From a virus (lineage: Duplodnaviria > Heunggongvirae > Uroviricota > Caudoviricetes), in the IMG/VR virus record IMGVR_UViG_2802429224_000009: DNA of 28,217 bases; one strand, written 5' to 3'. Shown piece by piece: positions 3,053 to 17,895 of the stretch (within the stretch, counting starts at the first letter, position 1; each line of letters opens with the position of its first letter). The translations under genes were made by a program, and so were the position numbers. The notes below the pieces were generated by a model, which had not been told where the DNA came from, made no database searches, and saw only the letters and a list, made by a program, of their open reading frames with translations.

Positions 3053-3162
3053 GTATATTTATCTCATGGCTTGTTCTGATTATTTCGGTGGCCTGCGCCA
3101 TTGGGATTATGCGAATTATTCATTCAGTAAAAAAGATTGAACGCTTTTTCACTGACGAATAA
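3049..3162 (+). CDS. Small single-pass membrane peptide (37 aa)
   Basis: Not in the ORF track (below length cut-off). My translation: MSIFISWLVLIISVACAIGIMRIIHSVKKIERFFTDE; hydrophobic core then basic tail; start overlaps the upstream stop. Confidence 0.35.
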   Translation: MSIFISWLVLIISVACAIGIMRIIHSVKKIERFFTDE

Positions 3163-5723: not shown

Positions 5724-5862
5724 TCCGTGTCACTGCCAGAAGGTTAACCCATGTATACACAAAAAAACCGCTTGCCATGCCGTAATCAGTCAGGTTACAT
5801 TTCCGCTGCACCTCATAAAACGGGTGCCGGGATTGCAACCCCCGCTGACAACTACAGCGCAC

Positions 5863-6364: not shown

Positions 6365-6754
6365 ATGATTGACCGTCACGACTTCGTAAAATGGGTGCGC
6401 ACACAGGACACCCGTCTGGCCCCAAAACTTCAGGCAATGTTTGATTTTTATCTCCGTGCCCGCGCCAGCCGGGCACGCACCACAAAACCGGAGAACGCAG
6501 ACACCCTTTATTTCACCGTGGACGACTGTTACCGCGTAGCCTTCACGCCACAAGGTCTGGCCCTGTACACCCTGACACCACACGGCGACTCCCTGCTGGC
6601 GTATTACAACTCCCCGGCCTCCGTATTTGCGGCAATGCTGGCGCATCGTACCGCTGGCGGGTGTGCCTCGCTGAGTGAATACACCACTGAATTTAACCGC
6701 CTTTCCGTCATCTTCTCGCAGGAGTGGCAGCGCGTGACGGGATACCAGCCATGA
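6365..6754 (+). CDS. Hypothetical protein (129 aa) translationally coupled to gene A
   Basis: Stop TGA at 6752-6754 overlaps the ATG of the replication gene at 6751. Confidence 0.5.
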   Translation: MIDRHDFVKWVRTQDTRLAPKLQAMFDFYLRARASRARTTKPENADTLYFTVDDCYRVAFTPQGLALYTLTPHGDSLLAYYNSPASVFAAMLAHRTAGGCASLSEYTTEFNRLSVIFSQEWQRVTGYQP

Positions 6755-9591
6755 GTGAGTTTGCATGGAGCTGGAATGAACCGCAGCCAGCTATTGATCC
6801 GGACGACTTCGCGAACTTCAGCCGGTTGCCAAAAACCGGACTGCAACGCGCCATTCGTTACTACTATGAGGCGGACAAAAAGGCTCAGGAAGAACAGGAT
6901 GCGAAGGAAGAAGCCTTTTTCGCACAATCCGCCATGGGTAAAAAACTCATGGCATCCCTTGAGGAAGCCGGGCAACGCGAAAAACTGATAAAAAACATCA
7001 TCAGTAAGCGCCAGGAAATAAAGCAAGACCCGGTGGCCTGCGCCTTTGCCGAACTGAAGGCACTTCCCGTTTATCTGCGAGACCCCCTGAGCCGCCGCCT
7101 CTCTTTTTTACGTAAGAAGCAGGAATCTGACCGCCAGAAAGGAAAAAACGCCAGGCTGGCAGAACGCTATGCACAAGGAACCCTGCTCAAAATATTCAAA
7201 CGTCTGAAACGCACTGACGGACGCTGGCTGACACCGTGTTATTGCTCCCTTGCCGGACGCGAACGCCTGGACGATTTGCTTTACCTGCCGCAGCTCAACA
7301 AACACCAGATACAGACGCTGGCCACCATGACGGCGGCGATGTTCAGCAGCACTTTTGAAACACTCTGCGATAACTTTGGCGCGACTGATGGCGAGCTGAC
7401 CATGAAAATTGCGCTGAAGGCGTATCAGATGCTGGCCCGCATGGCGTTACATCTGCACACCATGCCGCCGCATTACGAAGCACTGAGAACGGACAAAGAC
7501 CGGAAGAACGCACCGAATACGGAGCTGCTGCCGGGTGCCATCCTTCGCCTGACCTGTGCGGAATGGTGGAAACACAAACTGTGGCTTTTACGTTGCGAGT
7601 GGCGGGAAGAACAACTCCGTGCCGCCTGTCTGGTTTCCAGAAAAACATCACCCTATCTGAGCCAGGACGCGTTAAGCGAGTTTCGCGCACAGCGCGAGAA
7701 AACACGCGATTTTCTGAAAAGTTTCATGCTGGAAAATGAAGACGGGTTCACGATTGATCTCGAGACAGTGTATTACGCGGGAGTAAGTAACCCGGTTCAC
7801 CGTAAGGCAGAAATGATGGCCACCATGAAGGGGCTGGAACTTCTGGCCGAAGCCCGTGGTGACAAAGCGGTGTTTCTGACTGTCACCTGCCCGTCAAAAT
7901 ACCACGCAACAACGGAGAACGGTCATCCGAACCCCAAATGGAACGGGGCCACCATGCGCGACTCCAGCGATTACCTGGTTAACACGTTTTTTGCGGCGGT
8001 CCGCAAAAAACTGAACCGCGACGGCCTGCGCTGGTATGGCATCCGCACGGTGGAGCCTCACCATGACGGCACCGTGCACTGGCATATGATGGTCTTTGCT
8101 CATCCGGAAGAAATCGACAGCATCGTGGCCATCACCCGCGATATTGCCATTCAGGAAGATCGTCACGAACTGGGCGATGATATTACTCCGCGCTTTAAGG
8201 CGGAGTATGTCGACGGCTCAAAAGGCACACCAACCAGCTATATCGCGACCTACATCGGAAAAAACCTGGACAGCCGCGCCGTAGATGGCATCGACCCGAA
8301 AACGGGCAAGCCACGCGTTGACCACGAAACCGGAAAATCAATGGCCGAGAGCGTGGAGCGCGCCATTGGCTGGGCGCGTCTTCACCGGGTCCGCCAGTTC
8401 CAGTTCTTTGGCATCCCCTCCCGTCAGGTATGGCGTGAACTCCGCCGCCTTGCCAGCCAGATGGCACGCAACCCGGAAGGCCCGCAACGGCTGAAGGATG
8501 ATGCAATGGATGCGGTACTCGCTGCCGCTGATGCCGGGTGTTTTGCCTCCTACATTGAAAAACAGGGCGGCGTACTTGTTCCACGTAAAGACTACCTGAT
8601 TCGCACCGCCTACGACCTCGCAGATGAGCTGAACGATTACGGCGAACAGAGCGTACAGATTTACGGGATCTGGTCACCACTCATCGGGGAATCCTCCCGT
8701 GTGTGCACGCATCCGGATAACTGGAAGCTGGTAAGACGCAAACCGGAAGCGGAAGACAGCGCCCGCGAAAATGGTTTTGACCTTCAGGGCGGCCCTGCCG
8801 CCCCTTGGACTCGTGGCAATAACTGTCCCCGTGTACAGGAAACGAACAACAACGGGACAGAACAGCCGGAAGAACGGCCAGCACTGTGGCCGCAGCTCCC
8901 TGACGGCGTTGAAGTGAATGAATGGATGCGCTCACTGAAACGGCACGAACGCCGGGCGCTGATGCGTTCGCTGCGTGACAAACAGGCCAAAAACAGCAGT
9001 GCTGAAATGCAGAACTGGACACAGAGCCGCAAACAGCCACAGCCTTTGCCTGATAACCACGAGTTACTCGCTAAAGAATGGCGGGAGTCTGCTGAATCTC
9101 TCGGCCTGCATATCGGTGAACAGCAGATGCAGCACCTGTTACGGGGCGGCAGTCTGTACGTTGACGGCAGCATCATTGCACCGCAGGGATTTGAAATTGT
9201 ACGCAAACCGGATACCCGCCCGGACAGCCGAATCACGCAGCTCTGGCAACGCCTGAGCCGTAACCACGGCGTAAGCAGCACGGAGATCCGCCATAACCCG
9301 GTCGCCAGCTATCTGGAACAACTAGGGGCATCAGACCCTGAAGCCGCCGCACACCTGGCATCCACACTTCAGCAGGACCAGAACACCATGAAAACCCCCG
9401 TTACCGTGCTTTCTGACATGCTGCGCGCCATCCGTGACGCAGAGCATGCACAAAGAATCAGTGAAACCACTGAACGCGCCCGCCGCAAAGCAGACCTGCT
9501 GCGGGGTGGCCTGACCAGCGGAAACAAAAAACAGACAGAAACGGGATTCACAAATCCCGTAAATGAGCAAAAAACGCGCCGCGATATATGA
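6751..9591 (+). CDS. A: Rolling-circle replication initiation endonuclease, P2 gpA family
   Basis: Track ORF 6724..9591; probable start is the ATG at 6751 (MSEFAWSWNEPQ...). Carries the HUH-type motif (HDGTVHWHMMVF) and paired catalytic tyrosines (TSYIATYIGKN) characteristic of gpA-family initiators. At 946 aa it is longer than P2 gpA as I recall it. Confidence 0.9.
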   Translation: MSEFAWSWNEPQPAIDPDDFANFSRLPKTGLQRAIRYYYEADKKAQEEQDAKEEAFFAQSAMGKKLMASLEEAGQREKLIKNIISKRQEIKQDPVACAFAELKALPVYLRDPLSRRLSFLRKKQESDRQKGKNARLAERYAQGTLLKIFKRLKRTDGRWLTPCYCSLAGRERLDDLLYLPQLNKHQIQTLATMTAAMFSSTFETLCDNFGATDGELTMKIALKAYQMLARMALHLHTMPPHYEALRTDKDRKNAPNTELLPGAILRLTCAEWWKHKLWLLRCEWREEQLRAACLVSRKTSPYLSQDALSEFRAQREKTRDFLKSFMLENEDGFTIDLETVYYAGVSNPVHRKAEMMATMKGLELLAEARGDKAVFLTVTCPSKYHATTENGHPNPKWNGATMRDSSDYLVNTFFAAVRKKLNRDGLRWYGIRTVEPHHDGTVHWHMMVFAHPEEIDSIVAITRDIAIQEDRHELGDDITPRFKAEYVDGSKGTPTSYIATYIGKNLDSRAVDGIDPKTGKPRVDHETGKSMAESVERAIGWARLHRVRQFQFFGIPSRQVWRELRRLASQMARNPEGPQRLKDDAMDAVLAAADAGCFASYIEKQGGVLVPRKDYLIRTAYDLADELNDYGEQSVQIYGIWSPLIGESSRVCTHPDNWKLVRRKPEAEDSARENGFDLQGGPAAPWTRGNNCPRVQETNNNGTEQPEERPALWPQLPDGVEVNEWMRSLKRHERRALMRSLRDKQAKNSSAEMQNWTQSRKQPQPLPDNHELLAKEWRESAESLGLHIGEQQMQHLLRGGSLYVDGSIIAPQGFEIVRKPDTRPDSRITQLWQRLSRNHGVSSTEIRHNPVASYLEQLGASDPEAAAHLASTLQQDQNTMKTPVTVLSDMLRAIRDAEHAQRISETTERARRKADLLRGGLTSGNKKQTETGFTNPVNEQKTRRDI

Positions 9592-9667: not shown

Positions 9668-10627
9668 ATGAAAATTTGTATCGACGACGGCTCCACCAAC
9701 ATCAAGCTGGCATGGACTGAGAACGGCGAACGCCGCAACGCCATCAGCCCGAACAGCTTCAAGTCGGAATGGTCTGCGCCGTTCGGTGGCACGCAGCCCG
9801 CGAACTACATGCTTGATGGCGTGCGCTATGGTTTTGATCCGGTCAGCGATCGCTTTGTCCAGACGACCGACACGCAATACCAGTACAGCGATGTGAATGT
9901 CATTGCCATTCATCATGCGCTGGTCAAATCAGGCATCACGCCACAGGAGGTGGATGTGGTTGTCACCCTGCCACTGAGCGAGTATTTCGACACAAACGCA
10001 CAGCCGGACATGACCAACATCAACCGCAAAAAAGCGAACGTTATGCGCCCGGTGGAGTACCAGAACGGCGAGGCATTCACTATCCGTAACGTGCGGGTTA
10101 TGCCTGAATCCATTCCGGCTGGCTTTAAAGCACTGGCTGACATGAGTCCGTTTGAATCCCTGCTGATTGTGGATTTGGGCGGAACCACGCTGGATGTGGC
10201 AAAGGTTCAGGGGCAACTGGCAGGTATCAGCCAGGTGTTTTGCGATCCACACGTAGGCGTTTCCCTGATGGCCGATGCCGTACTGTCGGTGATGGCCACC
10301 AACGGTATGCGCACCAGTCACCACATCGCCAATACCATTATCGAACATCGCCACGATGAAGCCTGGCTGCGCCAGCACATCCACAATGACGCGCATTACG
10401 CCAGCCTGATGGCGGTTATTCGTGAAAAGGAAGAAACACTGAAACAACGCGTGATCCGCGCGCTGGCGGGTTTTTCGGGTTACGGGCGGGTGATGGTTGT
10501 CGGTGGAGGGGCGGAGATTGTGGCACCCGCTATCCGCGAAGCCTGCGGAGTTAATGCGACTTTCATCGCGGACGGGGTGCCACAGTTTGCTCTGGTTAAT
10601 GGGCTGTACGCAATGGACAAGGAGTAA
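9668..10627 (+). CDS. parM: Actin-like segregation ATPase, ParM/StbA family (type II partition)
   Basis: 319 aa, AAGGAA RBS. N-terminus MKICIDDGSTNIKLAW closely matches R1 ParM as recalled (MLVFIDDGSTNIKLQW); phosphate-2 motif IVDLGGTTLDV; C-terminal VMVVGGGAEI...LVNGLYA also ParM-like. Confidence 0.9.
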   Translation: MKICIDDGSTNIKLAWTENGERRNAISPNSFKSEWSAPFGGTQPANYMLDGVRYGFDPVSDRFVQTTDTQYQYSDVNVIAIHHALVKSGITPQEVDVVVTLPLSEYFDTNAQPDMTNINRKKANVMRPVEYQNGEAFTIRNVRVMPESIPAGFKALADMSPFESLLIVDLGGTTLDVAKVQGQLAGISQVFCDPHVGVSLMADAVLSVMATNGMRTSHHIANTIIEHRHDEAWLRQHIHNDAHYASLMAVIREKEETLKQRVIRALAGFSGYGRVMVVGGGAEIVAPAIREACGVNATFIADGVPQFALVNGLYAMDKE

Positions 10628-10631
10628 ATCA

Positions 10632-10946
10632 ATGACGACACCAACCAGACGGATAAGTTTCTATCTGAAGCCCGCCGTCGTCAAGAGCGAACGGGAGGCG
10701 TGCAGTTACCTCGACAGCCTGCCAGCCTCCGAACGCAGCCGCGCACAACGCGCGGCTTTTCTGGCCGGACTGGCTCTTATAAAACGCACCCCCGCGTTGG
10801 CGTATTCGCTGGCAGAATGGTCAGAAGACGAAATACGGATGCCATCGCTGCCAGTACAGCCTGAAAAACCGGCACAACCAGCAACAAAGAACGACAGCGC
10901 CACACAACTGATGAAGGACAATATCCGCGCACTCTTTCCCGAATAA
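10632..10946 (+). CDS. parR: ParR/StbB-like centromere-binding adaptor (ribbon-helix-helix)
   Basis: ATG at 10632, 4 nt after the parM stop. RRISFYLKPAVVKSEREACSYLDSLPASERSRAQRAAFLAGLAL parallels R1 ParR (RTIAFKLNPDVNQTDKIVCDTLDSIPQGERSRLNRAALTAGLAL) from memory. The track ORF 10497..10946 is an artefactual upstream extension overlapping parM. Confidence 0.8.
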   Translation: MTTPTRRISFYLKPAVVKSEREACSYLDSLPASERSRAQRAAFLAGLALIKRTPALAYSLAEWSEDEIRMPSLPVQPEKPAQPATKNDSATQLMKDNIRALFPE

Positions 10947-11033
10947 CCCCATCGGGGCAATATCGCCCGCTTGCAGGAGAGTCCGGACGAAGCCAGAATA
11001 ACGGCAAACAGTAACTCAGAAGAGGATAACATC

Positions 11034-11537
11034 GTGAGTCACTTTAACGATTTATGTCAGATCAACAAGGATGCAGAAGAGAAGCATACCGAAGCAGCGA
11101 AAATTCTGCGGGAGAGCGCAGCAGAGTTGATTGATTTTTATGAAGAATGGCTGGGGCTTCCATCCCTGTACTGGGAAGATAATGACGGCAACTCGCATCG
11201 CTATGTAGACACAGGCCAGCCATGCAAAACAGCGGAAGACTTCCGCCCGTTCCCACTCCACAGAATGCCATCTTCTCGGGACAATGTTTTTCGTATGGCT
11301 GTGCGAACGTGGGTTGGTTCATCTGACAACAGTTACCCGGTAAGCGTGGTTATTGCGCTTGAACTGCATTCGGTAGATACAGAAAGGGTATCCCTGAAAG
11401 TTCAGGTAGAAGACGATGGCCCTGTTCGCGTATTGCTTAATAAACCCAGCGCAGAAGCCTGGGGAGAGGTGGTCAAGAGCATGAAAAAACACATTGCCAG
11501 TCACCTGAAAAGCCGCGCTCCATCCGCGCTCCGTTAA
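11034..11537 (+). CDS. Hypothetical acidic protein (about 167 aa from GTG 11034; track ORF begins at TTG 10971)
   Basis: GTG at 11034 has AGAGGA about 7 nt upstream; ORF ends at 11537 directly before a strong hairpin. No family recognised. Confidence 0.5.
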   Translation: MSHFNDLCQINKDAEEKHTEAAKILRESAAELIDFYEEWLGLPSLYWEDNDGNSHRYVDTGQPCKTAEDFRPFPLHRMPSSRDNVFRMAVRTWVGSSDNSYPVSVVIALELHSVDTERVSLKVQVEDDGPVRVLLNKPSAEAWGEVVKSMKKHIASHLKSRAPSALR

Positions 11538-11553
11538 ACAGGGCTGGTGAGTC

Positions 11554-11576
11554 GGGGCATAAATCCTTTATGCCCC
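11554..11576. terminator. Perfect 10-bp stem / 3-nt loop hairpin (GGGGCATAAA-TCC-TTTATGCCCC), terminator-like, no U-tract
   Basis: Seen directly at 11554-11576, 17 nt after the stop of the preceding ORF, at the boundary between the early (+) and late (-) gene blocks. Confidence 0.4.
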
Positions 11577-11812
11577 GGCGAAGCAGCAGACAAGCGAAGC
11601 GCGTCAGTCACCGTAGTAGGGAAAATAACTTTATTGTTGAGCTTAAATTTATCAAGCGTTATCTTTCGCCTGTAAACTGCATTGTAAGGTTTTGGGGATT
11701 CAGAGGCGGCTCCCCCAAAAAAGTTGATACCGCCTAGTTGGTCACTTCGTCGTCAGACTGGGACTCCAGCCACGCCAGCTGAGAGGTTGGCACAAACCTC
11801 CAGCTATCCCCG

Positions 11813-12070
11813 TTACCCCGCCTGCAACAGTTCCAGTGCCATCTGTTTTTCTTCCGGGCGCATCCGTTCAATCAACAGCTTTAACACGCCATTCTCCAGC
11901 CCGCTGGGCACCAGTGTGTGCGAGTAGGTCAGGTTCATCACCCAGGTGTGCCCACACTCGAGACGGGTGCAACGGTAATAAACATCTGCAAAGCGATCAT
12001 CTTTCCAGAAGGTCTTCTCAATCACTGCGCGTTCACCACAGCAAAAACATCGCGCTTTTTGTCTGCGCAT
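11813..12070 (-). CDS. ogr: Ogr/Delta-family zinc-finger late-gene transcription activator
   Basis: Track ORF 11813..12139(-); internal ATG at 12070 (MRRQKARCFCCGER...) with GGAGGTGG RBS. Cys spacing C-X2-C-X22-C-X4-C (C8, C11, C34, C39 of the 85-aa product) equals the Ogr zinc-finger spacing. Confidence 0.8.
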   Translation of the reverse strand: MRRQKARCFCCGERAVIEKTFWKDDRFADVYYRCTRLECGHTWVMNLTYSHTLVPSGLENGVLKLLIERMRPEEKQMALELLQAG

Positions 12071-12135
12071 TTTCCACCTCCCAGAGCAGCGTTTTCCTGC
12101 AGCTGATTTTACCTGCTCTTTTCGCATGTCGCACA

Positions 12136-13170
12136 TCACTCCGGGGGCTCATCAAATTCAAGAATAAATTTCACCTCCCCCAGTCGCCTGATATCCGGGT
12201 CACTGTTGATTCCCTCCATAATCAGGCGGCGCATCGGAATAACCTCATCCCTGTAATATGCCTCGCGGGATTTCAGTGGGTCACCAAGCCCGGCCGTATT
12301 TGCGGGAATGATGCCGGCAAGTCCGGGTGGGAAACGGTGCGCAACGAGCTGATCCTGGGCACTGATGGTTTTTATATTCAGGAACTCATCTTTTGTACCT
12401 GAATCCCCGATAGGGATCACCTTAACGCCTTCTTTGTCTCCGCCCGGTATATTGATAAACATGGATTTAAAGTTGCCCGCCCCTTTTGACGCCTCTATCT
12501 TTTTACGGAATTCCGCCTCGAGCTCGGGATCCATGTCCGGGTCAGTGGAATACAGGATATAACCAAGATGTGCGCCGTTCTTGTAATACTTGCGGCGAAA
12601 GCGGGTGGCATCCACATTCAGCATGGCGGATTCCATCCCGTGAATATAATCCGGGACACCGTAAACCTGCTGTTGCGGGTCATAAATGGCCACGAACACC
12701 ACTTCGCCTGGCGGGTAAACGAGATCTTCCAGTGCCGCCTGCACAATCACCGTGCCACCCTCGTTGTTACGCCGCAGGTACAGAGAAGGTAACGTATGCA
12801 GGCGCACCACCCGACCGAAGCCATTGCGCACTTTAAGCAACCCCATATCCCCGAATATCAGCAGATTGGTTACTGCTGCCGCCATGGCGGCGTGTGTCAT
12901 ACCACCACCACCCCGAAAACCCTGCATGATCATATTGACGCGCGCACGCAATACCGCGCCGTGATACGGTGCGATATTGGACAACATGGCGAGATCCATG
13001 CGCTCAATGGGCGGCGTGTACCAGCCGTTATAGCCATCCCAGAGCGAGCCGTAATAACAGCCCCATGCAGCGACCGGTTCCGGGTCACCAAATTCAATAA
13101 ACGTCATTTTGCTGGCTGTTTTTTTTGCCACGCCATCGTGTAACACGGGGTATTTTTTCTTTTTACTCAT
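12136..13170 (-). CDS. Q: Portal vertex protein (P2 gpQ-like)
   Basis: 344 aa, same length class as P2 gpQ; immediately downstream of and overlapping the large terminase gene on the same strand. Confidence 0.85.
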   Translation of the reverse strand: MSKKKKYPVLHDGVAKKTASKMTFIEFGDPEPVAAWGCYYGSLWDGYNGWYTPPIERMDLAMLSNIAPYHGAVLRARVNMIMQGFRGGGGMTHAAMAAAVTNLLIFGDMGLLKVRNGFGRVVRLHTLPSLYLRRNNEGGTVIVQAALEDLVYPPGEVVFVAIYDPQQQVYGVPDYIHGMESAMLNVDATRFRRKYYKNGAHLGYILYSTDPDMDPELEAEFRKKIEASKGAGNFKSMFINIPGGDKEGVKVIPIGDSGTKDEFLNIKTISAQDQLVAHRFPPGLAGIIPANTAGLGDPLKSREAYYRDEVIPMRRLIMEGINSDPDIRRLGEVKFILEFDEPPE

Positions 13171-14950
13171 CTGACAGGATCCATGTTGATTTGCGCTTGT
13201 GCTTATAGTTCAGGGGTTCATTACTTGCGGCATGAGCTATGGCAAAGAAGATGTCAGCGTGCCCGGTTTCTTCGCTACGTTCGGCGGTGAAAGTGACTTT
13301 ATTGCCGCTGTTGGTGGATTCCTGACGAATGGCCAGGAACGATGCCGGAATATCCGTGGCTTCTTCATCCCACTCAATACGGTTGGCGTAAATCAGATCC
13401 AGCATCTTCATCACCAGGCGGTTTTTGGATTCCACGCTGTAATGAATGGCCACTGTTTCACGGCGGGCAAATCCCTGAACCAGCTCAAAGACACCGTAGC
13501 CAAGACCGGTGACGTCAATGCCGATAAATGTCATGTTATAGCGCGCCTTAATGCTGCGGATACGCTCTGCCATAAACTGGAATGACATGCTGCGCCAGTG
13601 GTGTTTTTCCAGCACGCGGAATCGTTCTGCCGCAACCAGCGGCGGTGCCAGCACAACAAATGTGGCGTTATCGCCGGAGCGCGCAGGGTCAAAGCCACCC
13701 CAAACCTCACGGTTACCAAATGGCATGGACTCTTCCGGGTGAAAATCCTCCCACGTACTGACATCAACACCACAACGCACAAGATCATCGAATTTAAAGA
13801 CGCTCTCTTTGTCATCCACAAACACACACATAAACAGCATATTGAACGCTGTTTCGTTGTATCGCTCGCGCAGTTCGTTGATGTCAGCAAGGTTAAAGCC
13901 GCCGGCAATGGCATCTTCCAGCGTAACCACATAGCGCCACTGACCATCCGGACATTCACGCCCACCATCGCGCAGCTCATCAAAGGACGGAAACTCAACC
14001 CCTTTTCGTTTCGGATCGCCTTTGCGCCATTCATCGCCAGACCAGAACGGGTAACCCTGGTGTGTTTTGGATGACGGCGTGGAGAAATAGGTAATGCGCC
14101 AGTGTTTATGGGTGGCCATCCCTGATGCCACTTCATTGAGACGGCGAAAACCGGGGATCCACAGGTATTCATCAATATACAGGTGGCCGCTGTTTGACTG
14201 CGCTGTGTTACTGTTGGTCGCCAGAAAATACAGTTCAGCCAGATTACTTAACTTAACCGGATTGCCTTTAATGGGAATGCCAAACTCTGTTTGTGCAATT
14301 TTTACAATATAAGTACGGAACACTTCGGCCTGACGTTTTGATGCCGATAAAAATATCTGTGTGTCGCCGGTTAATACTGCATCTTCAAATGCCTCAAACG
14401 CGAAGTAATACGTCGCCCCAATCTGGCGGGATTTAAGCAGGTTGCGTACACGGCGGAATTTGTTTTCACGCAGATGCAACTGATAAGCAAACAACTTTTT
14501 CGTAAACGGCTCAAAACTTTCAGCAGTCAGTCCGGAAACGTCATTAGTTTTGCGGGGACGCTCTTTCTTACCTGCACCTTTTTCTCCGCGTTCTTCTTTT
14601 CCATAACGGCCAGGCTGGGGGATGTCCACTCCCATTCGCGCAATCTCAGCCATTCGTTCCGTGTGCTTGTTTCTGACCGACATTAGTTTGACGTGATGAC
14701 CAATCAGGCGGTCGAGTTCATCGTGTTCTTCCGGCGTTTTATGGTCACGCTCCGCCAGTACAGCGAGACGCCGGGCGATAACATCCTCCACACCTTCCGT
14801 ATTGAGCTGCGTGTACCACTCAAACTTTGTCGCCCAGTAATAAACAATTCGCGGGCTGTTCAGTCCGAGTTTCTTTTGTATTTCTTTTGGTGTGTGCCTT
14901 TTCAGATAGAGCGATTTTGCAGCAGCAATCACCTCATCAGAATACGCCAT
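13163..14950 (-). CDS. P: Terminase large (ATPase) subunit (P2 gpP-like)
   Basis: 595 aa; ATG at 14950 with AGGTGAGG RBS; divergent from the scaffold/capsid operon as in P2. Confidence 0.85.
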   Translation of the reverse strand: MAYSDEVIAAAKSLYLKRHTPKEIQKKLGLNSPRIVYYWATKFEWYTQLNTEGVEDVIARRLAVLAERDHKTPEEHDELDRLIGHHVKLMSVRNKHTERMAEIARMGVDIPQPGRYGKEERGEKGAGKKERPRKTNDVSGLTAESFEPFTKKLFAYQLHLRENKFRRVRNLLKSRQIGATYYFAFEAFEDAVLTGDTQIFLSASKRQAEVFRTYIVKIAQTEFGIPIKGNPVKLSNLAELYFLATNSNTAQSNSGHLYIDEYLWIPGFRRLNEVASGMATHKHWRITYFSTPSSKTHQGYPFWSGDEWRKGDPKRKGVEFPSFDELRDGGRECPDGQWRYVVTLEDAIAGGFNLADINELRERYNETAFNMLFMCVFVDDKESVFKFDDLVRCGVDVSTWEDFHPEESMPFGNREVWGGFDPARSGDNATFVVLAPPLVAAERFRVLEKHHWRSMSFQFMAERIRSIKARYNMTFIGIDVTGLGYGVFELVQGFARRETVAIHYSVESKNRLVMKMLDLIYANRIEWDEEATDIPASFLAIRQESTNSGNKVTFTAERSEETGHADIFFAIAHAASNEPLNYKHKRKSTWILSDE

Positions 14951-15144
14951 AAATAAACCTCACCTGCTGATGCAATTTTAATTTATGCATTTTCAGCAAA
15001 GGCTTTTTTAAAAACGAATATCGCTTTTCGGTATTTTTCGGATATATGCGCATATCCGAAAGTACCGGAAATTAATCAGATGACGACGTTTTCATTTCTC
15101 CGTTAAATAACGCCAGTTTAATTTTTATCAGCGGATTAATTCAG
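14951..15144. promoter_or_regulatory. Divergent late-promoter region between P (-) and O (+)
   Basis: AT-rich 194-bp intergenic region. Inverted repeat gctgaTGCA...TGCAttttcagc (about 14964-14998); perfect 12-bp palindrome ATATGCGCATAT (15044-15055); direct TTTTCGG repeats (15025-15041). Confidence 0.5.
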
Positions 15145-16041
15145 ATGACGAAGCAGAAAACAGACTGGGTTGTGGTTGCCACATCAGGCCCCACCATCGA
15201 CGGTCGGGAAATTGAACCGAAGTGGCTGACGGATGCCGCCGAGGTTTACAACCCGGACGAGCGAGCCGCCATGCTCTGGCCATATCACGCCGATTCCGGA
15301 TGGCGTGCCTTCACCAATAACTACGGCATTGTTGATGCCCTGAAAGTCGAAAAATTTGGTGAAAAGGTGCAGCTTAAAGCACGCCTGATCCCAAATCGCT
15401 TCCTGATTGAAGCCAATAAGGCCGGGCAGAAACTTTTTACCTCCATTGAAGTGCGGGAAAACTATCTGGGCACGGGCAAATTCTTTGTGTCCGGTATCGC
15501 CGTGACGGATACCCCAGCCAGCATTAACACTACACGCCTGCAGTTTTCCATGGGGGAAGCCATCCATATGGGCAACGCAGAGGCGCTGAATTTTACGCTG
15601 CAGCCTGATGATGAGCAGGCCAAACGCAACTTCTTCTCCCGCTTCTTCTCATCTGACAATCACCAACAGGGAATTTACCAAGCCATGAACGAAGAACAGT
15701 TCAGCCAGTTAATGGGTGCCATTAATAAAACCAGTGAACGCCTGGACGAGCTGGAAAAAAACGTCGCGCAGTTCAGCGCGAAGGATGCCTCGAAAGATAC
15801 CGGTGATAACAAGCCGGAAGGCAGCACCGGCGTTCAGGGGCAGGACAACGCAGAACAGAACAACAAGGACGACAAAACCTTCACGCTGACCACCGAGCAG
15901 GGCGAAAAGCTGTTCTCCACAGTGAACGCCATCGCGGAGAAGGTTACCAGTATGGAAACCGCATTTGCTGAACTCAGCAAGGACGCCACGAAGCTGCCGG
16001 GCAACAATCCGGCCGGTGGCGAAACTTTTAACCTGGTGTAA
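15145..16041 (+). CDS. O: Capsid scaffolding protein (P2 gpO-like)
   Basis: 298 aa; segment GKFFVSGIAVTDTPAS matches P2 gpO (GKCYLVGLAVTDDPAS as recalled); acidic coiled-coil C-terminal half. Confidence 0.85.
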   Translation: MTKQKTDWVVVATSGPTIDGREIEPKWLTDAAEVYNPDERAAMLWPYHADSGWRAFTNNYGIVDALKVEKFGEKVQLKARLIPNRFLIEANKAGQKLFTSIEVRENYLGTGKFFVSGIAVTDTPASINTTRLQFSMGEAIHMGNAEALNFTLQPDDEQAKRNFFSRFFSSDNHQQGIYQAMNEEQFSQLMGAINKTSERLDELEKNVAQFSAKDASKDTGDNKPEGSTGVQGQDNAEQNNKDDKTFTLTTEQGEKLFSTVNAIAEKVTSMETAFAELSKDATKLPGNNPAGGETFNLV

Positions 16042-17797: not shown

Positions 17798-17895
17798 ACG
17801 ACTCCCAACAACCGGGCGGGCGCGGTGGAGGTGTGCCGGCAAAAGCCATCAGCACACTGCGGAAACCGGTCAGCCCGCCTTTCCCCGGAGTGAGC

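Follow-up and report, generated by a model that had tools for sequence, protein, structure and literature searches.

Late promoters of the P2 type are activated by zinc-finger proteins of the Ogr/Delta family, to which P4 Delta and phage 186 B belong, and P4 Delta has low similarity to the helper ogr genes (PMC8628076). The family is characterized by the cysteine motif C-X2-C-X22-C-X4-C, and three activator sites with the consensus TGT-N12-ACA serve the four late promoters of P2 (PMC3931495). According to the RefSeq record of P2, ogr is located directly after the tail gene D (F operon) on the same strand, beside attP and int, with a -35 and a -10 sequence of its own in the D-ogr gap and followed by a terminator annotated 'for ogr transcript and F operon'. 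A position after the portal gene Q instead of D has already been stated for K139 and Smhb1, together with speculation on an effect on timing (PMC8537503). In K139 (Longwoodvirus) the gene is orf13 ('zinc-finger protein'), which is present downstream of Q on the same strand and convergent with rep.

The DNA analysed here, referred to as the window, is a 28,217-nt stretch from a member of the Caudoviricetes (IMG/VR record IMGVR_UViG_2802429224_000009), in which an ogr-like gene was found surrounded by P2-type A, Q, P, O, N, and M genes (Table 1). In a profile search, its 85-aa product matched Pfam PF04606 (Ogr_Delta) along the whole profile (1-47 of 47; E 2.1e-11; 44 bits, gathering cut-off 26.3 bits), and it matched PHROG 603 ('transcriptional regulator') with E 7e-28. 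Cysteines 8, 11, 34, and 39 show the C-X2-C-X22-C-X4-C spacing, and an alignment of the protein with P2 Ogr and four phage homologues showed these four to be invariant; an additional cysteine is present at position 10. The 'MR' start was kept in the homologues of SW3, ESSI-2, phiO18P, and K139, and the C-terminal region was conserved across genera. By tblastn, a 100% match was obtained with WP_001254197.1, an 85-aa protein from E. coli ETEC1717 annotated by PGAP as 'ogr/Delta-like zinc finger family protein', and the short 85-aa form is the one that PGAP annotated in relatives. The gene is real and encodes a member of the Ogr/Delta zinc-finger family, and routine annotation suffices to recognise it correctly. 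Solved structures were discarded as a clue to identity, as they gave chance-level zinc-ribbon matches only (RPB9/TFIIS, E 0.3-0.8). An earlier sequence-only reading of this DNA had described an 85-aa minus-strand protein with Ogr cysteine spacing directly downstream of Q, at the distal end of the terminase-portal operon, and all of this was confirmed: ogr follows Q and P on the same strand. The gap between the Q stop and the ATG, which it gave as 66 bp, was measured as 65 nt, and the interval 11813-12135 corresponds to gene plus spacer. A separate ogr homologue, a possibility which that reading had raised, was not found in the rest of the window or in the complete prophage of ETEC1717, which is 98% identical.

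Table 1. Positions in the window of the ogr-like gene, its flanking genes and the predicted regulatory elements.
Feature	Position	Strand	Basis or remark
Variable cargo between ParR-like gene and ogr	10902..11812		Context, outside the ogr unit
Hairpin	11543..11587		GGGGCAUAAAG, an 11-bp stem without mismatches; about 225 nt beyond the ogr stop, no U tract
ogr-like gene, 85 aa	11813..12070	minus	ATG 12070-12068 to TAA 11815-11813; Pfam Ogr_Delta match, cysteine spacing, conserved 'MR' start, PGAP-annotated relative
Q-ogr spacer, possible 23-codon N-terminal extension	12071..12139	minus	Open frame; GTG 12139-12137 overlaps the Q stop (GTGA)
Shine-Dalgarno sequence GGAGG	12077..12081	minus	Read from the sequence; 6 nt before ATG 12070
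Candidate -10 TAAAAT of a predicted dedicated ogr promoter	12106..12111	minus	Begins 41 nt upstream of the ATG; GTGCGA at the -35 position, weak
Portal gene Q	12136..13170	minus	Pfam Phage_portal; colinear with annotated portal genes in relatives
Terminase large subunit gene P	13163..14950	minus	Pfam Terminase_6N, Terminase_6C, Terminase_5 (gpP-like)
Extended symmetric region	15022..15075		TTCGG-N5-dyad-N5-CGGAA; outer half-site-like repeats, spacing identical in K139
Perfect dyad, candidate operator of the Ogr subfamily	15037..15060		TTCGGATAT-ATGCGC-ATATCCGAA; sole copy in the window, conserved position
Capsid scaffold gene O, opening the rightward late operon	15145..16041	plus	Pfam Phage_GPO

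We consider it likely that this gene encodes the single Ogr/Delta-type late activator of the phage, belonging to a subfamily of the K139/ESSI-2/SI7 type and working as follows. Upon derepression, a short mRNA would be made from a weak dedicated promoter between Q and ogr, and the 85-aa protein would be translated from this mRNA by means of the GGAGG ribosome-binding site. The protein, probably as a dimer, would bind the one dyad TTCGGATAT-N6-ATATCCGAA and then turn on the divergent late promoters on either side, that of P-Q to the left and that of O-N-M-L-tail-lysis to the right. Since no terminator was found between Q and ogr, late P-Q transcripts would be expected to continue through ogr and to provide positive feedback, and ribosomes ending Q may restart at the overlapping GTG to produce a 108-aa form. 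Transcription would then stop downstream of ogr. Both routes of expression proposed by the sequence-only reading, i.e., co-transcription with the operon and a promoter just upstream of the gene, appear to fit the sequence.

The dyad is located between the divergent genes P and O, with its centre 98.5 nt from the ATG of P and 96.5 nt from the ATG of O. In K139, the same dyad (TTCGGATATggggttATATCCGAA) was found at the same place and as the sole copy in the genome. An exact TTCGGWTA within 260 nt upstream of P was detected at fixed positions in 42 of 45 loci from species genomes compared to 1.7% in shuffled sequences, a comparison that overstates significance because related sequences are not independent, and variants of the dyad were found in about 60 distinct IMG/VR and phage loci. 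The outer repeats of the extended region may serve as additional binding sites or belong to the core promoters. Further copies of the TTCGG dyad were not found ahead of L, of the lysis genes or of the tail genes, even when two mismatches were allowed. A search for exact TGT-N12-ACA gave five matches in the window, none of them near a late gene start and none within 14951-15144, where the sequence-only reading had placed the late promoters. This pattern was dropped as a criterion because the annotated sites of P2 itself fail it in its strict form; the annotated pP/pO site fails it too, so the absence of the pattern is by itself weak evidence. The link between protein and dyad is based on co-occurrence and on analogy, and the dyad is unlike the TGT-N12-ACA consensus of P2, 186, and P4.

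The dyad could also be the site of another factor, either a host or a phage protein, with Ogr acting elsewhere or through a less obvious site. Such a factor would be in line with a sequence that does not resemble TGT-N12-ACA, with one copy per genome compared to the three activator sites for four late promoters in P2, and with two portal-less elements (L010 and L011) that have the Ogr gene and no TTCGGWTA in the DNA examined. We nevertheless regard it as rather unlikely, as the dyad and the Ogr subfamily were found together over Enterobacterales, Vibrionaceae, and Aeromonas, with the dyad keeping its place between P and O, and as no such dyad was present in the P/O spacers of P2 and P88, phages with another type of Ogr or none after Q. 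P88, which has no exact TGT-N12-ACA match, could be used for the TTCGG dyad alone, as a negative control. Besides, the place and symmetry of the dyad mirror the single activator site shared by pP and pO in P2, and the P/O spacer showed neither another conserved element nor a sigma-70-like promoter.

The reading we prefer also includes a dedicated ogr promoter, for which the Q-ogr spacer contains a candidate. Of 69 unique IMG/VR upstream sequences, 68 have TA[AG][AG]AT 33-44 nt ahead of the ogr start, compared to 3.5% of shuffled ones, the significance again being overstated by the relatedness of the sequences. Among the loci from species genomes, hexamers of the TAAAAT type were present in 50 of the 56 that have Q upstream and in 1 of the 17 that do not. 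The first-codon base varies and TA-AAA-T is fixed, and the variants TAAGAT and TAGAAT retain T1, A2, and T6, which points to a constraint on DNA rather than on protein. Lineages with a closed upstream frame also retained the hexamer, as did loci that have no Q next to ogr; it was absent from Vibrio and Aeromonas members, including K139. As most relatives have an open frame across the hexamer, its conservation could be partly coding (L/V-K-S). The candidate -35 sequence is poor, and the predicted promoter may be weak or factor-dependent. Direct control of ogr by the C repressor was considered and rejected, the ATAAGCC direct repeats of the C/cox control region being absent near ogr. An 11-mer beside the hexamer, AAAGAGCAGGT, is repeated at 1073-1083, with about 0.06 chance matches expected by a rough estimate. 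No terminator-like site was found in the Q-ogr spacer, and its RNA structure was not significant (z +0.94); Rho-dependent termination in the spacer is a further possibility.

The ogr-like frame is open back to GTG 12139, so that a 108-aa form is possible. This form might be the true product, coupled to Q and translated from the late P-Q-ogr mRNA only, in which case TAAAAT would be coding sequence (V/L-K-S) and there would be no ogr promoter. In 42 of 51 sequences from species genomes an in-frame start codon was shown to overlap the Q stop, and in 55 of 62 IMG/VR and phage sequences one is located no more than 6 nt away. The frame is preserved by most spacer lengths (50, 56, and 65 nt), an AGGGxG resembling a Shine-Dalgarno sequence is present ahead of ATGA, and the long form was chosen in the GenBank annotation of SW3 and ESSI-2. 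However, an activator produced only from the operon that it activates could never start the cycle. The hexamer was kept in lineages with a closed frame (spacers of 64, 73, and 80 nt; the in-frame codon is TAG in one of them), in loci with 3 kb inserts between Q and ogr, and in the portal-less L010 and L011. Moreover, the lysine codon is always AAA and T6 is retained despite a change of residue, the homologues of K139 and phiO18P begin at the methionine of the short form, and the residues of the N-terminal extension are poorly conserved. The mapped -10 of P2 ogr is identical to the hexamer in sequence and spacing (annotated as TAAAATG 40 nt before the ATG). Taken with the coupling evidence, these observations make it improbable that the long form is the only product.

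A dedicated promoter giving the 85-aa protein is thus retained in the preferred reading, with the 108-aa protein as a possible second form. On this basis we tentatively suggest, with somewhat less than even confidence, that the Ogr subfamily has a specificity of its own, TTCGGWTAW-N6-WTAWCCGAA in place of TGT-N12-ACA, with one operator halfway between P and O governing all late expression to either side, two forms of the activator, and near-identical copies in portal-less, satellite-like elements presumably exploiting the operator. The 85-aa form would then be made from its own promoter with the P2-like -10, and the extended form by translational coupling to the portal gene. Neither this combination nor a defined binding site for activators of the K139/ESSI-2/SI7 type was found in the literature searched.

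The order P-Q-ogr, convergent with the replication gene A, was found in K139, phiO18P, SW3, and ESSI-2. It was present in 76 of the 80 best-matching IMG/VR loci, and in a further two Q and ogr were separated by an insert of about 3 kb. Among 75 evaluable species-representative genomes, 56 showed the order, 52 with adjacent genes and four with inserts, and it is the rule in at least five other genera of the Peduoviridae. These relatives are diverged, with 47-60% identity in Ogr and terminase across many genera. The window was shown to be colinear with K139 throughout (int, C, cox, rep, ogr, Q, P / O, N, M, L, sheath, tube, lysis, tape measure, baseplate) and has the K139/ESSI-2/SI7-type order rep ... 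ogr <- Q <- P / O -> N -> M -> L. The Peduovirus order D - ogr - attP - int was not found; int is located at the left end of the window, and ogr after Q, about 11 kb from int. Judged by its sequence, the window is a regular member of the K139/ESSI-2-like branch of the Peduoviridae, for which ogr after the portal gene is the normal, already described layout. The prophage lineage was found in 46 of 5426 complete E. coli genomes, and none of the isolated phages in the collection showed at least 60% terminase identity to the window, so that this is an E. coli prophage lineage without a cultured representative in the collection.

The sequence-only reading had taken the position of ogr as a different regulatory topology and as a sign of a mosaic rather than a canonical P2, and had suggested a comparison of gene order in related prophages. 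The comparison does not bear this out, as the order is not unusual. An unusual rearrangement in a P2 mosaic, creating a new feedback topology, would agree with an order unlike that of P2, where ogr lies between D and int, with tail genes, lysis genes, and a ParMR module that are not P2-like, and with the recombination seen in the DNA adjoining ogr. It is nevertheless very improbable, since the same order prevails in the other genera and in most related loci, extends to full colinearity with K139, and is already in print for K139 and Smhb1, and since the divergence of the relatives argues against recent recombinants of one ancestor. In addition, P2 ogr likewise closes a late operon that it activates, has a promoter of its own and shares the terminator of the operon; the difference lies in the operon alone. 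That the gene is an inactive or unexpressed remnant, as the rarity of the lineage in E. coli might suggest, is hardly credible for an intact ORF with four cysteines, a strong Shine-Dalgarno sequence, full-length family matches, a conserved C-terminal region common to several genera and more than 555 relatives in IMG/VR alone, which is the sole ogr of its prophage.

Downstream of ogr, the cargo region contains an ORF on the plus strand (10971-11537, 188 aa) that matches PHROG 5091 (function unknown). Similarity to close relatives ends at 10901 and returns at 11814. In relatives with 97-100% identical P and Q proteins, DNA similarity ends exactly at the ogr stop codon, and one of them has a terminator and then an unrelated Rrf2 gene directly after ogr. 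The DNA adjoining ogr is a recombination hot spot. In the ETEC1717 relative, a strong terminator (-36 kcal/mol, z -5.7) followed by UUUUCUU was found right after the ogr stop. The hairpin of the window (-29.3 kcal/mol, z -2.0) showed 93-94% identity to DNA that immediately follows the portal stop in P88-like phages, and it is possibly the end of the P-Q-ogr transcript. A GC-rich inverted repeat at 11690-11720 was rejected, as it folds no better than shuffled sequences (z -0.8) and is missing from the ETEC1717 relative. The gene had also been described as being next to cos, which the analysis did not support; no cos site was located, the P2 cos 19-mer was not found in the window, even with three mismatches, and the similarity break in close relatives argues against a conserved cos between ParR and ogr.

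The position of ogr after Q matters little by itself, being the norm in a large P2-related branch and already in print. The dyad, on the other hand, is a concrete and testable candidate operator for activators of the K139/ESSI-2/SI7 type. Together with the cassette-like layout of ogr and the hint from satellite-like elements described below, it would assist the annotation of late promoters in prophages of enterobacteria, Vibrio, and Aeromonas, which number in the hundreds. The closest homologues in isolated phages (43-53% identity) were found in SW3, SW5, and SI7 (Salmonella, Irrigatiovirus), ESSI-2 (Cronobacter, Seongnamvirus), vB_YenM_324 (Yersinia), and phiO18P (Aeromonas), in all of which a 'transcriptional regulator' follows the portal gene as in the window. 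The C-terminal sequence HTLSPS...L.PE.RQ.AL.LL is common to the window protein and these homologues. SW3 and ESSI-2 also share with the window the TAAAAT hexamer and the TTCGGWTAW half-site upstream of P, but differ in that their records annotate the long, Q-overlapping form. K139 orf13 showed 45% identity over residues 7-76, and K139 has the same single-copy dyad TTCGGATAT-N6-ATATCCGAA; it differs from the window by a small additional orf14 between Q and orf13 and by having no TAAAAT hexamer at the conserved distance, other putative promoters having been annotated by its authors.

Portal-less elements with the Ogr subfamily of the window often carry the TTCGGWTAW element, which agrees with an operator role of the dyad. 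There is also a hint that satellite-like elements exploit the same activator. Like P4, L010 and L011 carry an Ogr homologue, along with a primase-like gene and an integrase. P4 Delta is a fused double Ogr domain, whereas the Ogr of these two elements consists of one domain only and shares 95-96% identity with that of the window.

P2 Ogr (72 aa) belongs to the same Pfam family and has the same cysteine spacing as the window protein, but the two showed only 21% identity and P2 Ogr does not have the conserved C-terminal region. In P2, a GGAGGTG-like Shine-Dalgarno sequence follows the -10 of ogr, and one activator site is shared midway between pP and pO, 55-56 nt from both transcription starts; the dyad of the window is likewise central. 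In P2 as in the K139/ESSI-2-like branch, ogr thus appears to travel as a cassette of own promoter, ribosome-binding site, gene, and terminator at the end of a late operon, which suggests that the feedback logic has been conserved and that only the operon differs.

The minus-strand ORF downstream of the portal gene Q was confirmed to be an Ogr-type gene, as the sequence-only reading had claimed. Its product has cysteines at positions 8, 11, 34 and 39, giving the predicted spacing C-X2-C-X22-C-X4-C, and matched the full Pfam Ogr_Delta profile (E 2.1e-11, 44 bits; cut-off 26.3) as well as PHROG 603 (“transcriptional regulator”, E 7e-28). The gap after the Q stop codon was measured to be 65 nt instead of 66 bp. 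A 98%-identical prophage adjoining pheA in E. coli ETEC1717 encodes a protein with 100% match, annotated as “ogr/Delta-like zinc finger family protein”, and the gene was present in 46 of 5426 complete E. coli genomes, with this annotation every time.

Features of the ogr region and the P/O spacer
Feature	Position	Strand	Remarks
ogr	12070–11813	minus	ATG 12070 to TAA 11813; 85 aa, begins MRRQKARCFCCGERAVIEKTFWKDDRFADVYYRCTRLECGHTWVMNL...
Portal gene Q	12136–13170	same as ogr	ogr 65 nt after stop
Terminase gene P	13163–14950		overlaps Q
Scaffold gene O	15145–16041		divergent from P
Replication gene A	6724–9591		
ParM/ParR	9668–10946		
TAAAAT hexamer, candidate −10	12111–12106	minus	starts 41 nt before ogr ATG
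Perfect dyad TTCGGATAT-ATGCGC-ATATCCGAA	15037–15060		between P and O; only copy in window

The position of ogr had been regarded as unusual. The closest phage homologues (SW3/SW5/SI7, 53% identity to the window protein; ESSI-2, 47%; vB_YenM_324 and K139 orf13, 45% each; phiO18P, 43%) all place the Ogr-like gene after P and Q, where it converges with the replication gene; the gene order was inspected in K139, SW3, ESSI-2 and phiO18P. IMG/VR contained at least 555 relatives, and among the 80 loci that matched best, 76 also had the order O / P-Q-ogr; two of the other four had approximately 3 kb between Q and ogr, and two were without P and Q. Among 75 evaluable species-representative loci from Enterobacterales, Vibrionaceae and Aeromonas genomes, 52 had Q directly upstream (21–80 nt), four had an insert and 19 had no portal gene nearby. 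Besides, the ogr homologues of K139 and Smhb1 were previously reported between the portal and replication genes, with a suggested consequence for timing (PMC8537503); in Burkholderia KS5 and KL3, ogr is located elsewhere, in the early region (PMC3091744). Both the gene and its location are thus real, but they are ordinary and had been annotated and described before.

The window is an integrated prophage with the order integrase, repressor, cox, early genes, A, ParM/ParR, variable segment, ogr, Q and P, followed by O, N, M, L, tail, lysis, tape measure and baseplate genes. This layout is colinear throughout with Vibrio phage K139, and the element therefore belongs to the K139-like branch of Peduoviridae as a regular member and is not, as proposed earlier, a mosaic departing from canonical P2. 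None of the isolated phages in the collection had as much as 60% terminase identity to the window. The ParM/ParR module of this P2-like, chromosomally integrated prophage is of plasmid partition type (Pfam StbA_N and ParM_N; PHROG 2515, partition protein), separates A from the cargo segment and is conserved in the E. coli relatives. The 98-nt M-L gap (17798–17895) is GC-rich (GGGCGGGCGCGGTGGAGGTGTGCCGGCAAAAGCC...), and K139 and P2 keep a gap of similar size; it may conceivably be a site for packaging or regulation.

No second full-length ogr was found in the window or the ETEC1717 prophage. Cysteines spaced as in Ogr were found in no further plausible gene of the window, and tblastn with P2 Ogr and the window protein as queries gave no further match, either there or in the complete ETEC1717 prophage up to the junction near raiA. 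The proposed location of ogr next to cos was not supported. The P2-type cos 19-mer was absent from the window, in which no cos site was located, and relatives with 97–100% identical P and Q proteins shared no DNA with window 10902–11813. Because their similarity to the window ends exactly at the ogr stop codon, and because a terminator occupies the DNA that separates ogr from the neighbouring Rrf2 gene in ETEC1717, a conserved cos site directly adjoining ogr appears unlikely. The region 10902–11812 is a cargo hot spot limited exactly by the 3′ end of ParR and the ogr stop codon; it contains a 188-aa ORF in the window (10971–11537; PHROG 5091, function unknown), a hypothetical gene and the Rrf2 regulator in ETEC1717, and different DNA in other relatives.

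The ogr reading frame is open upstream as far as a GTG at 12139 overlapping the Q stop codon (GTGA), from which a product of 108 aa is predicted. The 85-aa form is favoured by a GGAGG 6 nt before ATG 12070, by an “MR” start conserved among homologues, at which the K139 and phiO18P proteins begin, by the poor conservation of the N-terminal extension and by the PGAP annotation of 85 aa in E. coli relatives. In favour of the 108-aa form, 42 of 51 species-genome sequences have an in-frame start codon overlapping the Q stop, and 55 of 62 IMG/VR and phage sequences have one no more than 6 nt away. Since most relatives have such starts, it is plausible that translational coupling on a P-Q-ogr mRNA yields a longer form alongside the short one.

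Of 69 distinct IMG/VR upstream sequences, 68 carried a hexamer TA[AG][AG]AT 33–44 nt before the start, compared to 3.5% in shuffles; so did 50 of 56 species-genome loci with Q upstream, compared to 1 of 17 without Q. The hexamer persisted where the upstream frame was closed (spacers of 64, 73, and 80 nt), where Q and ogr were 3 kb apart, and in loci L010 and L011, which have no portal gene. The base preceding it is free, AAA is never AAG, the last T is constant while the encoded residue changes, and both variants, TAAGAT and TAGAAT, retain T1, A2 and T6; this pattern fits a constraint at the DNA level rather than on coding. In P2, the annotated ogr −10 is likewise TAAAATG, 40 nt before the ATG and followed by a similar GGAGGTG-type ribosome-binding site. 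The case for a candidate homologous, P2-like promoter upstream of the window ogr is good, though indirect. Its −35 sequence, GTGCGA, is weak; the C/cox region has repressor-type repeats that were not found at this promoter, and the hexamer was absent from Vibrio and Aeromonas members, including K139. Extra DNA of 1–3 kb was found between Q and ogr in loci L079, L081, L106 and L166 (also L167 and L169), and the first three keep TAAAAT despite the insert, which fits ogr being a self-contained cassette. The 11-mer AAAGAGCAGGT immediately upstream of TAAAAT (12111–12121) recurs at 1073–1083 between the integrase and repressor genes, with approximately 0.06 such matches expected by chance (rough estimate).

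L010 1–7861 (IMG/VR contig IMGVR_UViG_2541047882_000002) and L011 1–6536 (IMGVR_UViG_2734482785_000020) have no terminase or portal gene. They encode a Toprim primase-like protein (895 aa), a tyrosine integrase (346 aa) and an Ogr protein 95–96% identical to that of the window, whose gene keeps the TAAAAT hexamer; they also contain repeated TGTAACCG motifs (L010, approximately 5740–5840). They look like a satellite carrying its helper's activator, whereas P4 Delta is only distant kin of helper ogr genes (PMC8628076). The 19 of 75 species-representative loci with this Ogr subfamily and no upstream portal gene (L112, L127, L133, and L139–L159) showed TAAAAT in one of 17 scorable cases. Most had a TTCTGGCGGGC-like motif approximately 25–35 nt before ogr, many had a TTCGGWTAWAAAtTtCTTGC element approximately 4 kb upstream on the same strand, and seven had an O-like (scaffold/protease) fragment upstream.

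The 194-nt P/O spacer contained neither a sigma-70-like promoter by consensus scan nor TGT-N12-ACA. The centre of the dyad within it is 98.5 nt away from the start codon of P and 96.5 nt from that of O. The same dyad (TTCGGATATggggttATATCCGAA) is present once in the K139 genome, also between P and O, and both elements share the outer repeats TTCGG-N5-dyad-N5-CGGAA. Variants (TTCGGWTAW-N6-WTAWCCGAA) were found in approximately 60 distinct IMG/VR and phage loci. In 42 of 45 species-genome loci, compared to 1.7% in shuffles, an exact TTCGGWTA was present no more than 260 nt before P, at fixed positions (−81/−82 in 23 loci, −104 to −116 in 15). The TTCGG-type element was absent from the P/O spacers of P2 and P88, and no mention of such a motif in phages was found in the literature searched. 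In P2, the transcription starts of pP and pO are each 55–56 nt away from a single annotated activator site (3057–3087), and one palindrome was likewise assigned to pP and pO in Smp131 (PMC3931495). Its position, symmetry and co-occurrence make the dyad the best candidate binding site of this Ogr subfamily. The site would act either from approximately −55, as in P2, or from nearer the core promoters. The P2-like ogr promoter, the possible coupled long isoform, the TTCGG-type dyad as candidate operator and the satellite-like carriers, all of which we infer, may be new. A joint reading, with a TTCGG-type specificity of its own, a single P/O operator, two Ogr forms and satellite-like carriers, is proposed tentatively, with somewhat less than even confidence.

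A strong terminator (−36 kcal/mol, z −5.7, then UUUUCUU) immediately follows the ogr stop codon in ETEC1717; in the window, approximately 205 extra nt are followed by a hairpin without a U tract (11543–11587). A 70-nt element (11538–11607), consisting of hairpin GGGGCATAAA..TTTATGCCCC and GACAAGCGAAGCGCGTCAG, is 93–94% identical to sequence at and after the portal stop codon of P88-like phages (Xuanwuvirus) and others, and is behind most of the 1142 E. coli genomes matching the region; ETEC1717 has only the GACAAGCGAAGCGCGTCAG part left, directly after ogr. The element may represent a common module for transcript ends or for recombination. The sole sigma-70-like consensus match within 11400–15300, TTGATA-16-TAAAGT (11628–11655, minus), falls in the 205 nt that separate ogr from the hairpin and is oriented antisense to the 188-aa cargo ORF.

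No terminator-like site was found in the Q-ogr spacer of the window, the RNA of which folds no better than shuffles (z +0.94), whereas P2 has the terminator tQ directly after Q. In the P2 RefSeq record, ogr directly follows tail gene D on the same strand, with its own −35/−10 inside the 81-nt D-ogr gap, and the terminator after it is labelled “for ogr transcript and F operon”. Thus, P2 ogr is also the last gene of a late operon that it activates. The ogr cassette is on the P operon in the window and on the F operon in P2, so that what had been taken for a different regulatory topology follows the same logic as P2, placed on another operon.
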